A stretch of 6,220 nucleotides of DNA from a virus (Duplodnaviria; Heunggongvirae; Uroviricota; Caudoviricetes): IMG/VR virus record IMGVR_UViG_2537562091_000003, one strand, 5' to 3'. Every line of letters begins with the position of its first letter. The first letter of the stretch is position 1. The position numbers and the translations under genes were made by a program. Below are positions 2,528 through 6,220 of this stretch, in pieces. Below the pieces are notes generated by a model. That model was not told the DNA's origin. It was given only the letters and a program-made list of their open reading frames with translations, and did no database searches.

Positions 2528-3555
<1,028 letters not shown>

Positions 3556-3668: not shown

Positions 3669-3929
3669 ATGGATTACACAAATCTACCAAAACAAACTTT
3701 TGCTGATTTAATCGCACTCAGGCAAGCAGTCGTAGCTCTAATCAACTTGTTGCCGGAGAAGGAAAAGGAATTAGTTAAAGCGCTTCTTAACAGAACTGCC
3801 GCCGATTTTTCATCATATCCACTGACAGATGACCTTGCGGACCTTCCTGAATTAATTGCAGCGTCCGCCAATAAGCTTACTGAAGAGATTTACCCTCCTC
3901 AAAAATCTTCACAAAATTCCTGCGAGTAA
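3669..3929 (+). CDS. hypothetical acidic small protein (86 aa), convergent to the lysis operon
   Basis: ATG 3669 is preceded by AGAGG with a 5-nt spacer. The product (MDYTNLPKQTFADLIALRQAVVALINLLPEKEKELVKALLNRTAADF...) looks like a real helical protein, not low-complexity. It occupies an otherwise unexplained 321-bp gap between the 183-aa gene and the lysozyme. Its 3' end overlaps the 3' end of the 183-aa gene by 53 bp. The competing minus-strand ORF 3674-3871 is Ser/Ala/Arg-rich and looks like an antisense artefact. Confidence 0.4.
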   Translation: MDYTNLPKQTFADLIALRQAVVALINLLPEKEKELVKALLNRTAADFSSYPLTDDLADLPELIAASANKLTEEIYPPQKSSQNSCE

Positions 3930-4428
3930 CTTCAATGCAATAATCGTAAAACGCCGCAAACTGCTCATCGCGGCGTTTTTTTTCATCTTCAGAAGGAATC
4001 AGCACCGACAATTTTTTATTCAGATCAGCGACGCTGCCCTCCAGTTTTTCAATGGGCGATTCAATATCATCTTTTTCTGACCGCAATGCCGTCGGTGGCG
4101 TCTTCAGAGAACCAGTAATTCTTCCCGGTAGCTTTCCTTTGTAGGTTATCCACACATTCTGCGCCTCTAAAATTATGGGGCGCTTTTCCGGCGACTGCTC
4201 ATCCCCTTCACATAACCCGGCAGCAACATCCAGGAAGACCTGTCTGATGCTCCTTCTGGCTGCTGCCTCATAAAACTCCAGCGCAGCTCCTTCAACACGG
4301 TCCATGGCGACATCCAGGCCAAAAATTTCACCGTCAAAGCGTTCTTTGTCCTGTAAGGCTACAGTTACCGTAACTTTATTCTCAAAATTACGGACTCCTT
4401 TCACAACCAGTTCATAGTCTTGAGTCAT
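3877..4428 (-). CDS. uncharacterised phage protein (183 aa) in the holin-endolysin slot; possibly a DUF1327/YdfR-type protein
   Basis: ATG 4428 lies 4 nt after the holin stop, with GAGGAGAG overlapping the end of the holin gene, indicating translational coupling. No transmembrane segment or catalytic motif was recognised. In Qin of E. coli K-12 the gene between essQ and rrrQ is ydfR; the family assignment is by position and vague recall only. Confidence 0.8.
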   Translation of the reverse strand: MTQDYELVVKGVRNFENKVTVTVALQDKERFDGEIFGLDVAMDRVEGAALEFYEAAARRSIRQVFLDVAAGLCEGDEQSPEKRPIILEAQNVWITYKGKLPGRITGSLKTPPTALRSEKDDIESPIEKLEGSVADLNKKLSVLIPSEDEKKRRDEQFAAFYDYCIEVTRRNFVKIFEEGKSLQ

Positions 4429-4432
4429 TGGA

Positions 4433-4648
4433 TTACTCTCCTCTCGCAGCCTTACGCCTGTCTTCTTTAATCTTGAAATAAAGATTTGTCAGATACGTCA
4501 GCATGCCAAATACCAGACTACCCAATACACCTATTGCCGCCCACTGTGAGGGCGTGACTTTATCGAGCAACTGTAAAAACCAGTAGCCAGCACTGCCTGC
4601 AGAGGTGCTGTAGGCGATGCCCGTTGTTAACTTATCCATGGATTTCAT
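4433..4648 (-). CDS. class II holin, phage 21 S-type pinholin with dual-start motif (71/68 aa)
   Basis: Translation [71 protein letters not shown] is near-identical to phage 21 S (S21-71) as recalled. Two in-frame ATGs (M1 and M4: MKSM) form the antiholin/holin dual-start. SD GGAGGTGAGG lies upstream. The track ORF extending to 4732 is an unsupported N-terminal extension. Confidence 0.92.
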
Positions 4649-4738: not shown

Positions 4739-4770
4739 AAAAAGAAAAACGCCAGCAATTATTCTGGCGT
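4739..4770 (-). terminator. rho-independent terminator downstream of the AraC-family gene
   Basis: Minus strand: ACGCCAG-(8-nt loop)-CTGGCGT, a perfect 7-bp GC-rich stem, followed directly by TTTTCTTTTT. Located about 70 nt after the regulator's stop and about 90 nt upstream of the holin start. Confidence 0.65.
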
Positions 4771-4838: not shown

Positions 4839-5552
4839 CTAAGAAAATCTTGATAAATATTGGTGCGGAGGCACACCAAAATATCCTCTAAAAACACTTA
4901 CAAAATATGATGCATTGTCATACCCGCATATTCCCGCCACCTTGCCGACAGTATGGTTACTGTAGATCAATAATCTTTGCGCCATCATCATTCGTTCTTC
5001 AAGAATTAATTTACTAAACGATAACCCTTCGTCTTTTAATTTTCTTTTTAACAAACTCTCGCTCATATATAATCTTGAAGATATATCACAAAGTCTCCAT
5101 GACGCTGAGATATCCGAGTGAATAATAGCCTTAACTTTACAACCTAAGCTATTAAGACTTCCGAACAAAAAACTTTGCACTATTTTCTCTGAAGATAAGA
5201 CAGCAAGACATGCAAGTGATATTTGATTTCTAACTACATCCACGGTTTTGCTATCACAATTCAAGCATGCAACCAAGTTCTTTAACAATGAAAAATCTTC
5301 ACATTCTACTATCAAGTATGACGGATAAAACCTTCTTACAGAAAAAGGTGAGAGTGTGTAGTTTTTAAAGAAATCATTAACTGTTTTCTCCTCAACATCT
5401 ACGATCATTAGATGATCTGTATTTGACGAAAAAAGATCTTTTAAATTGTATTCAATGAGGACAGCATTTCCTTTTTTAAACAAAATATCTTCTTTACCAA
5501 TTCGGACACCAAACGAGTTCAACACCAAAATGATAGAACATATGTATGGCAT
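4839..5552 (-). CDS. AraC/XylS-family transcriptional regulator (AppY/EnvY/Rns-like), AT-rich moron
   Basis: C-terminal 100 aa carry the family's double helix-turn-helix signature (WRLCDISSRLYMSESLLKRKLKDEGLSFSKLILEERMMMAQRLL...GICGYDNASYFVSVFRGYFGVPPHQY), aligning by eye with AppY/EnvY. The gene is markedly more AT-rich than the flanking lysis genes. Preferred start is ATG 5552 with SD AGGTGG 5 nt upstream; the track's start at 5561 is a GTG placed too close to that SD. Confidence 0.85.
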   Translation of the reverse strand: MPYICSIILVLNSFGVRIGKEDILFKKGNAVLIEYNLKDLFSSNTDHLMIVDVEEKTVNDFFKNYTLSPFSVRRFYPSYLIVECEDFSLLKNLVACLNCDSKTVDVVRNQISLACLAVLSSEKIVQSFLFGSLNSLGCKVKAIIHSDISASWRLCDISSRLYMSESLLKRKLKDEGLSFSKLILEERMMMAQRLLIYSNHTVGKVAGICGYDNASYFVSVFRGYFGVPPHQYLSRFS

Positions 5553-5732
5553 ATTATCCACCTGATATCATTGGGGTTACACCAGGTAAGTATAGGTGGA
5601 AAATCAATATTCGCCAGTTCAACAATAAGGAAAATCTCATTGCATCACAACTATAAAACCATGTGTTTAACTCACAAAAAACAAATCATTAAACTAATCT
5701 GTTATATTATAATAGCTGCGTGCAATAATAAT

Positions 5733-5765: not shown

Positions 5766-6220
5766 GTAATGACTCCAACTTATTGATAGTGTTTTATGTT
5801 CAGATAATGCCCGATGACTTTGTCATGCAGCTCCACCGATTTTGAGAACGACAGCGACTTCCGTCCCAGCCGTGCCAGGTGCTGCCTCAGATTCAGGTTA
5901 TGCCGCTCAATTCGCTGCGTATATCGCTTGCTGATTACGTGCAGCTTTCCCTTCAGGCGGGATTCATACAGCGGCCAGCCATCCGTCATCCATATCACCA
6001 CGTCAAAGGGTGACAGCAGGCTCATAAGACGCCCCAGCGTCGCCATAGTGCGTTCACCGAATACGTGCGCAACAACCGTCTTCCGTAGCCTGTCATACGC
6101 GTAAAACAGCCAGCGCTGGCGCGATTTAGCCCCGACATAGCCCCACTGTTCGTCCATTTCCGCGCAGACGATGACGTCACTGCCCGGCTGTATGCGCGAG
6201 GTTACCGACTGCGGCCTGAG
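5766..6220 (-). mobile_element. IS1 insertion sequence, insB-proximal end with terminal inverted repeat; element continues beyond the window end
   Basis: 5766-5788 ggtaatgactccaacttattgat is the IS1 terminal inverted repeat; the InsB reading frame follows on the minus strand and is still open at 6220. The A6C frameshift site and insA would lie just outside the window. Confidence 0.92.
5780..6220 (-). CDS. insB: IS1 transposase InsB reading frame (part of the InsAB' fusion transposase), 5' partial
   Basis: Minus-strand frame reads [146 protein letters not shown], recognised as IS1 InsB. Stop TAA at 5782-5780; the frame is open to the window edge. Confidence 0.92.

Follow-up and report, generated by a model that had tools for sequence, protein, structure and literature searches.

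We found that the 183-codon open reading frame (ORF) between the holin and endolysin genes of virus record IMGVR_UViG_2537562091_000003 is a genuine, intact long-form member of the catalogued YdfR/DUF1327 family. We further show that it is an optional, moron-type accessory gene situated in the holin-endolysin slot of a lambdoid late operon. A dedicated role in lysis is unlikely, and we tentatively favor the explanation that its product would be a late-made, cytoplasmic modulator of host RNase E or RNA decay rather than part of the lysis machinery. The stretch of DNA analyzed here (hereafter the window) is 6,220 nucleotides (nt) long and represents the Qin prophage of Escherichia coli B; it matches the corresponding cryptic prophage region of E. 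coli B strains such as REL606 at 99.9% identity. The features on which the argument turns are as follows.

3877..4428, minus strand: YdfR/DUF1327-family gene, long form, with an ATG start and 183 amino acids (aa) plus stop (PF07041, phrog_2091)
4213..4428, minus strand: YdfR codons 1-72, minimal beta-beta-beta-alpha domain (AlphaFold2 (AF2) model, stand-alone homologues, identity to K-12)
4093..4212, minus strand: YdfR codons 73-112, conserved middle segment (EGDEQSPEKRPIILEAQNVWITYKGKLPGRITGSLKTPP; alignments, low AF2 confidence)
3880..4092, minus strand: YdfR codons 113-183, helical tail from a variable cassette (AF2 helices, in-frame module elsewhere)
4436..4443, minus strand: Shine-Dalgarno-like GAGGAGAG in the last holin codons (R-G-E), read from the sequence
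4433..4648, minus strand: class II holin of the S21 (pinholin) type, with a dual start at MKSM (PF04971, E 6.1e-34; essD in RefSeq)
3022..3555, minus strand: endolysin (rrrQ), a phage lysozyme with an Ala/Ser-rich N-terminus like that of signal-anchor-release (SAR) endolysins (PF00959, E 2.6e-24)
3669..3929, plus strand: orf86, a convergent 86-aa gene (phrog_2572 over 1-86 of 86, E 4.4e-53; RefSeq WP_001557934.1)
3948..3983, both strands: 10-12-bp hairpin within YdfR codons ~149-161 (EKKRRDEQFAAFY; RNA folds)

The 183-aa protein matches Pfam DUF1327 (PF07041) over residues 1-112 with 147.2 bits (cut-off 25; E 1.6e-43) and phrog_2091 over its full length (1-183 of 183, E 6.6e-109), and homologues of this length bear the name "YdfR family protein". 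The initial annotation, which was made from the letters and their ORFs, had presented the gene as an uncharacterized protein of no assigned role. It was right that no function has been assigned, but the supposed novelty did not survive: the protein belongs to the catalogued DUF1327/YdfR family (PHROG 2091), for which there is one experimental lead, to RNase E (PMC13232886). In contrast, its placement of the ORF between an S21-type holin and a SAR-type endolysin was correct according to Pfam, PHROG and the coordinates. DUF1327 was the sole Pfam match of the protein, searches of NCBIfam, PADLOC and the PDB gave none, and no catalytic family was matched in Pfam, NCBIfam or PADLOC. Homology to an unrelated enzymatic or structural family, or a disrupted reading frame, had been named beforehand as evidence that would count against the proposal; we found no homology to a known family of either kind, and the ORF was intact in 53 of the 56 distinct holin-to-endolysin segments that were extracted from 81 loci. 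In the pooled segments, the ratio of nonsynonymous to synonymous differences per site (pN/pS) was 0.47 for YdfR codons 1-112 (pairwise range for the N-terminal domain, 0.36-0.52) and 0.19 for the holin.

The family is narrow but very common in E. coli. We found 357 homologues (90% clustering), and wherever the organism is named it is Escherichia or Shigella; when 1.84 billion representatives were searched exhaustively with a profile, only 97 clusters at 50% identity emerged. Of 5426 complete E. coli genomes, 4274 have a megablast match to the family, and 272 carry the long form together with orf86 (at least 80% coverage). The family is also found in Shiga toxin-converting phages, and the genome records of phages PhiR63_1 and 2H10 annotate the 183-aa form at full length. 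Alignments revealed length classes of 103, 114/116, 171, 176, 183, 211, 268 and 296 aa, which share a common core and differ in their tails, with the short forms of 114-116 aa being the most common class.

The protein is composed of three modules: an N-terminal domain, a conserved middle and a helical tail encoded by a variable cassette. Both the profile search and the structure prediction that had been proposed as checks were carried out. For residues 1-72, AF2 with a diverse alignment gave a three-stranded antiparallel sheet (residues 5-14, 18-27 and 34-43) packed against a long helix (50-74), with a predicted local distance difference test score (pLDDT) of 88.4 and a predicted template modeling score of 0.73. 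Distant stand-alone relatives of 72-76 aa consist of only this domain, and Y53 and E54 at the start of the helix are invariant in 20 diverse DUF1327 members. Residues 73-112 are near-invariant among the E. coli forms, have AF2 confidence below 50, and end at about codon 112, which forms the left edge of a slot for variable cassettes. Residues 113-183 are predicted to form helices at 123-143 and 147-182 (pLDDT 64-78). Hydrophobic residues in this tail follow a 3-4 spacing (I126, L129, V133, L136, L140 and L143), which makes the earlier description of a charged, possibly coiled-coil C-terminal third a reasonable one.

The protein is soluble and acidic, with a whole-protein isoelectric point (pI) of 5.0. 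As had been claimed, it carries no transmembrane segment, signal peptide or catalytic motif: the maximal Kyte-Doolittle mean over 19 residues was 0.69, and hydropathy and Pfam searches detected no membrane or other hydrophobic segment, signal peptide, SAR sequence or muralytic domain. When YdfR was compared with the double-stranded RNA-binding domain (PF00035), neither the profile nor the alpha-beta-beta-beta-alpha topology agreed.

On the minus strand, the holin stop codon TAA (4433-4435) is followed by the spacer TCCA (4429-4432) and the ATG of YdfR (4426-4428). The ORF thus starts 4 nt past the holin stop and GAGGAGAG lies within the holin 3' end, as the initial annotation had read from the sequence, and this spacing suggests translational coupling of the gene to the holin. 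Among related IMG/VR loci, the same 4-nt junction recurred in every one of the 80 that have their holin on the contig; of the 81 E. coli-type loci, 80 show it with an S21-type holin, and in the remaining one (L045) the holin is of the HP1 family. Together with the shared strand, this conservation upholds the proposed placement for co-expression with the lysis genes. The YdfR gene appears to lack its own promoter and terminator and would be reliant on the holin transcript.

The K-12 homologue (Qin, b1555, 103 aa) occupies the same slot, 4 nt past the essQ holin. The initial annotation was right that ydfR sits there in K-12, yet it had treated the two genes as merely sharing a slot, whereas they are homologous: 68 of 74 N-terminal residues (92%) are identical, and the DNA is nearly identical to that of the window up to about codon 68. 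Beyond that point the K-12 gene has an unrelated 35-residue tail and overlaps the endolysin start; neither the conserved middle nor the helical tail is present in it, and K-12 has no convergent orf86 there. The switch between K-12 and E. coli B at about codon 68, from near-identity to none, therefore marks a mosaic junction. Strong mosaicism within the gene was also found when E. coli B was compared with other loci (L047, L076 and L004; window 4093-4428). N-domain alleles differ at a pS of 0.7, whereas in the same pairs the DNA of codons 73-112 is almost identical (pS ~0.035).

Presence of the gene is optional. Among deposited phage genomes, an S21-type holin was found in 438 records and the YdfR N-domain in 101. 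About three quarters of the records with this holin thus have no YdfR, and most such cassettes therefore work without it. Furthermore, the slot between the conserved flanks (from about codon 112 to ~55 nt upstream of the endolysin ATG) has at least five alternative fillings: almost nothing (the 116-aa form), a cassette with a convergent ORF termed orf90, the helical tail with orf86 (the window), the C-terminus of the 268-aa form with a convergent 104-aa ORF, and the C-terminus of the 296-aa form. Stand-alone distant homologues were found outside lysis cassettes, in the interval between the tail genes gpM and gpL, after gpI, after the tape-measure gene, and beside a glycosyltransferase-like gene upstream of HNH/terminase. 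The distant 72-76-aa homologues had no match in scans of one genome per species. Small forward ORFs in L192 and L094, which lie near one of the convergent partner ORFs described below (F5) or upstream of gpM, were considered as remote DUF1327 members and rejected, with non-significant hidden Markov model scores of at most 9 bits.

YdfR thus shows the presence/absence polymorphism between conserved flanks that is typical of morons, and does not keep the consistent, exclusive company with lysis genes expected of a lysis component. It resembles the lambda morons bor and lom in being optional amid conserved late genes and variable among collinear phages. The resemblance to bor extends to orf86, which lies in reverse orientation beside the lysis genes with its own terminator-like hairpin. 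However, bor and lom encode envelope proteins, whereas neither YdfR nor orf86 has a signal peptide or membrane segment, and YdfR is tied to the translation signals of the late operon, apparently with neither promoter nor terminator of its own. This passenger status points experiments toward RNase E, RNA decay and the convergent partner, and away from lysis timing.

What might such a passenger do? K-12 YdfR is the only family member with experimental data. A two-hybrid screen baited with RNase G yielded its first 72 codons on three occasions (Gopel et al. 2026, PMC13232886), and the same clone was also positive with RNase E constructs, including Rne(1-597). Strep-tagged YdfR co-purified chromosomally FLAG-tagged Rne(1-598) and also brought down DNase-resistant nucleic acid (RNA) (PMC13232886). 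Our search of the literature on the family returned this study as the single functional paper and otherwise incidental mentions. The interacting segment coincides with the minimal domain of the family, which is 92% identical in the window protein, and we therefore propose that docking occurs through the N-domain.

Our best explanation, which we regard only as tentative and in which RNase E binding is transferred by sequence from K-12 YdfR, is that YdfR is an optional RNase E or RNA-decay modulator. Read-through from the holin gene would lead to its production alongside the late and lysis proteins, and its N-domain would serve as a small cytoplasmic binding module. Experiments point to one candidate target, the half of host RNase E that is N-terminal and catalytic, perhaps with RNA, and the most likely outcome would be that decay or processing of host RNA is modulated at a late stage of infection. 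Through its heptad-like tail the protein might self-associate or make another contact. The T7 gp0.7 kinase and T4 Srd are phage proteins that target the RNA-decay enzyme of the host and change RNA stability during infection. With these, and with phiKZ Dip/gp37 (PMC4980113), YdfR would share the proposed class of small phage RNase E modulators; no similarity in sequence or fold was found between YdfR and Dip, gp0.7 or Srd. Dip binds the C-terminal scaffold of RNase E (PMC4980113), whereas YdfR is reported on the catalytic half, and all three act early, whereas the YdfR gene is in the late operon. If the link to RNase E is true, YdfR would be the first late protein of a temperate phage to target the catalytic half of this enzyme.

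Several observations weigh against this explanation. The RNase E link comes from a single study, in which full-length YdfR gave a two-hybrid signal with Rne(1-597) alone, YdfR over-production altered few transcripts, and the co-purification had no nuclease control, so that RNA could bridge YdfR and Rne (PMC13232886). The N-domain is acidic (pI 4.65). It is also highly variable between phage alleles (pN 0.33-0.36, with ~50% identity among the main types in E. coli), although one would not expect such variation in a domain whose docking partner in the host is essential and invariant. Constraint on the tail is weak among close relatives, with a pooled pN/pS of 0.70 for codons 113-166 compared to 0.87 in the control frame. 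For the window copy, the Q antiterminator lies ~4.4 kb further upstream, past an IS3 copy, a YbgA pseudogene and an AraC-type gene (L001 11960-15430; L001 denotes the REL606 locus, L091 that of ESC818, and other L numbers further extracted loci). This separation makes late expression doubtful, and the copy in this decayed prophage may rarely be expressed. Finally, a recurrent pairing with convergent genes hints at a function tied to the partner rather than to the host.

This pairing raises a different explanation, which we consider the main rival of RNase E modulation, though a less likely one. A convergent small ORF (70-116 aa) lies within ~30 nt of, or overlaps, many DUF1327 3' ends: orf86 in the window, orf90 (phrog_2411; L052 2411-2683, minus strand), which overlaps a 114-aa YdfR by 35 nt, orf104 (phrog_1853; L049 4817-5131, minus strand), which follows a 268-aa YdfR, and further instances in L085, L086, L087, L090, L092-L095 and L172. 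One case is a pair found in L092, L172-L189 and also L085, in which a 75-76-aa DUF1327 gene accompanies a gene of ~95 aa that we term F4. In a reciprocal search with F4, a convergent DUF1327 gene was found 8-19 nt away in 17 of 17 loci, across which F4 identity ranged from 37 to 100%. Its genomic surroundings are of three kinds, as the pair lies in the holin/endolysin slot, behind tail gene I or upstream of HNH/terminase. The F4 and DUF1327 genes clearly travel together and behave as a mobile two-gene unit.

Extended to the whole family, it is conceivable, though we doubt it, that DUF1327 and abutting convergent genes form a previously undescribed mobile two-gene cassette of lambdoid phages that hops among late-operon slots (holin/endolysin, gpM/gpL, gpI/gpJ and pre-terminase). 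An orf86-type partner would then be expressed in the lysogen from its own promoter, and would be antagonized, regulated or complemented by the DUF1327 protein, which would be made late and may bind RNase E or RNA. Such control could take the form of self-immunity against a prophage exclusion or defence factor, and could act at the protein level or via the overlapping antisense 3' ends of the transcripts. The window would then provide an example in YdfR-183 and orf86, which overlap by 53 nt and have a hairpin in common. In line with such a cassette are the recurrence of a convergent partner in many settings, the complete reciprocal pairing of F4, and the purifying selection and terminator-like hairpin of orf86 (see below).

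The evidence beyond F4 fits less well. The partner families were not detectably homologous: except within F4, Smith-Waterman comparisons against 500 shuffles gave p of at least 0.03, uncorrected, over 28 pairs, and BLASTP between partners found nothing. A shared N-terminal helix motif among the partners (LRxxVxAL...LP) was rejected on the same grounds. No partner was found for the K-12, 116-aa and 296-aa forms or for L088 and L089, the F5 partner occurs without DUF1327 in four of its six loci, and the type of N-domain allele does not follow that of the partner. No partner matches a PADLOC defence model; searches of PADLOC-DB for known defence or toxin-antitoxin proteins with YdfR, orf86 and seven other partner ORFs gave no match save one at chance level (E 0.027). 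The anti-defence and superinfection functions that the initial annotation had also suggested for YdfR are neither strengthened nor contradicted. A consensus promoter scan also found no orf86 promoter above threshold.

A third possibility, which is improbable, returns to the lysis-timing role that the initial annotation had put forward, with cytoplasmic YdfR tuning the triggering of the holin, the release of the SAR endolysin or the action of the spanins. The 4-nt holin junction, with its Shine-Dalgarno sequence inside the holin and its constancy across E. coli phage loci, would suit such a regulator, and the K-12 ydfR deletion is among the envelope-leakage hits in a screen with chlorophenol red-β-D-galactopyranoside (CPRG; PMC3879167, supplementary files 2 and 5). 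However, the Keio phenotype could be due to polarity of the resistance cassette on the downstream endolysin gene rrrQ, a plausible trivial cause because ydfR sits between holin and endolysin. The evidence is otherwise against a regulator of lysis. The gene is missing from about three quarters of the records with an S21-type holin (101 versus 438), stands beside an HP1-family holin in one locus, and has core-domain homologues at a distance from lysis genes, namely in the tail and terminase regions; its optional presence beside the holin and its stand-alone relatives in tail-gene clusters are what make a dedicated lysis role unlikely. YdfR also has no membrane segment, and a holin of this type brings its own regulator, as the dual start of the phage 21 S gene supplies its antiholin and the MKSM motif is seen here. 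That antiholin (S21-71) and other lysis-timing regulators are like YdfR in being encoded in the same mRNA region as the pinholin. However, S21-71 is a membrane protein related to the holin, whereas YdfR is soluble, unrelated to it and absent from most S21-type cassettes.

It is similarly improbable that the gene is a relic, of which the 112-codon core is or was the only functional part, the tail being incidental read-through into an inserted orf86 cassette and the gene inactive in a decayed prophage. At first sight the public annotation favors this. The RefSeq annotation pipeline PGAP reports codons 1-112 only, as a pseudogene that is "incomplete, missing C-terminus", in both REL606 (L001, 10094-10429) and ESC818 (L091, 1925-2260), and calls orf86 as a gene. 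The weak constraint on the tail among close relatives, in which changes at codon positions 1, 2 and 3 number 15, 14 and 15, is consistent with a relic, as are the prevalence of the 114-116-aa forms, a prophage full of insertion sequence (IS) elements and the distant Q antiterminator.

However, the tail behaves as protein-coding sequence on a longer scale. The 176-, 171- and 211-aa forms are set apart by three in-frame indels of -21, -36 and +84 nt, across which, independently, the reading frame was kept open. Compared with the 296-aa form, pN/pS of the tail is 0.46, equal to the value of the N-domain, indicating conservation at the protein level. The 296-aa forms contain the helical tail module in frame, and it constitutes the N-terminus of a separate gene of 186-209 aa in L172 (267-896, 209 aa) and L189 (3030-3590). 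The two helices that AF2 predicts with moderate confidence, and the full 183-aa form in the PhiR63_1 and 2H10 records, also speak against a relic.

In L172 and L189 this separate gene, which begins 4 nt past the holin, combines the helical module with a C-terminal domain of ~150 aa and is followed by a stand-alone DUF1327 gene (924-1151 in L172; 2775-3002 in L189). These modules appear as a fusion, in reversed order, within the 296-aa forms. This pattern of fusion and fission, with the modules separate in two loci and fused in others, suggests that the DUF1327 and helical modules work together. The C-terminal domains of the 268-, 296- and 209-aa forms had no Pfam match. We conclude that the YdfR ORF and orf86 are both real genes. 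The pseudogene label on the long form is probably an annotation artefact, apparently a systematic one wherever orf86 is called, that arises from the overlap with this convergent gene, and the long form is consequently overlooked in proteome-based surveys of the mislabelled genomes.

The 3' end of orf86 overlaps YdfR codons 167-183 (VTRRNFVKIFEEGKSLQ) by 53 nt. It had been claimed that the convergent ORF covers the charged motifs of the tail (EKLEGSVADLNKKL and EDEKKRRDEQ). This was not the case, since orf86 reaches codons 167-183 only, and those motifs are covered only by a 74-aa antisense ORF (3856-4080). The latter and a same-strand ORF in an alternative frame (4173-4337) had no PHROG family and were treated as shadow ORFs. 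orf86 itself is under purifying selection, with a pN/pS of 0.42 in its own frame versus 2.11 in the control frame, and AGAGG lies 6 nt upstream of its ATG. Its product is acidic and helical without a signal peptide or membrane segment, and its homologues comprise only 18 clusters, of which 17 are from E. coli or without organism name and one is from Salmonella. The hairpin folds at -15.9 kcal/mol on the plus strand (z -2.6) and at -22.7 kcal/mol on the minus strand (z -3.8). On the plus strand it is followed by a U8 run, 19 nt past the orf86 stop, and for this reason the hairpin, although inside the YdfR coding sequence, looks like a terminator of orf86. A consensus scan missed it because its loop is 12 nt.

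The remaining features of the window surround the holin and endolysin genes.

2528..3025, minus strand: Rz-type spanin gene (DUF2514; PF10721, E 1.6e-38; phrog_312)
within 2578-2874, minus strand: Rz1-like lipoprotein ORF embedded in Rz (ORF reading)
4839-5561, minus strand: AraC-type regulator gene, 240 aa, upstream of the holin
4749-4770: terminator-like hairpin between the AraC-type gene and the holin

The PDB relatives of the endolysin include 3hde/3hdf and RrrD (4zpu), and the K-12 equivalents of Rz and its embedded lipoprotein ORF are rzpQ and rzoQ. Where the window has the AraC-type gene and the hairpin, K-12 carries ynfU, cspB and cspF. The window is flanked by IS3 and by a second transposase-like fragment, probably IS1 (flank coordinates 30-449 and 5780-6157). 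Past Rz, the gene order on the minus strand is cspI, ynfN and gnsB, and a cspA thermoregulator (Rfam RF01766; 109.8 bits, E 3.5e-28) at 1906-2322 on the minus strand spans the leader and start of cspI.

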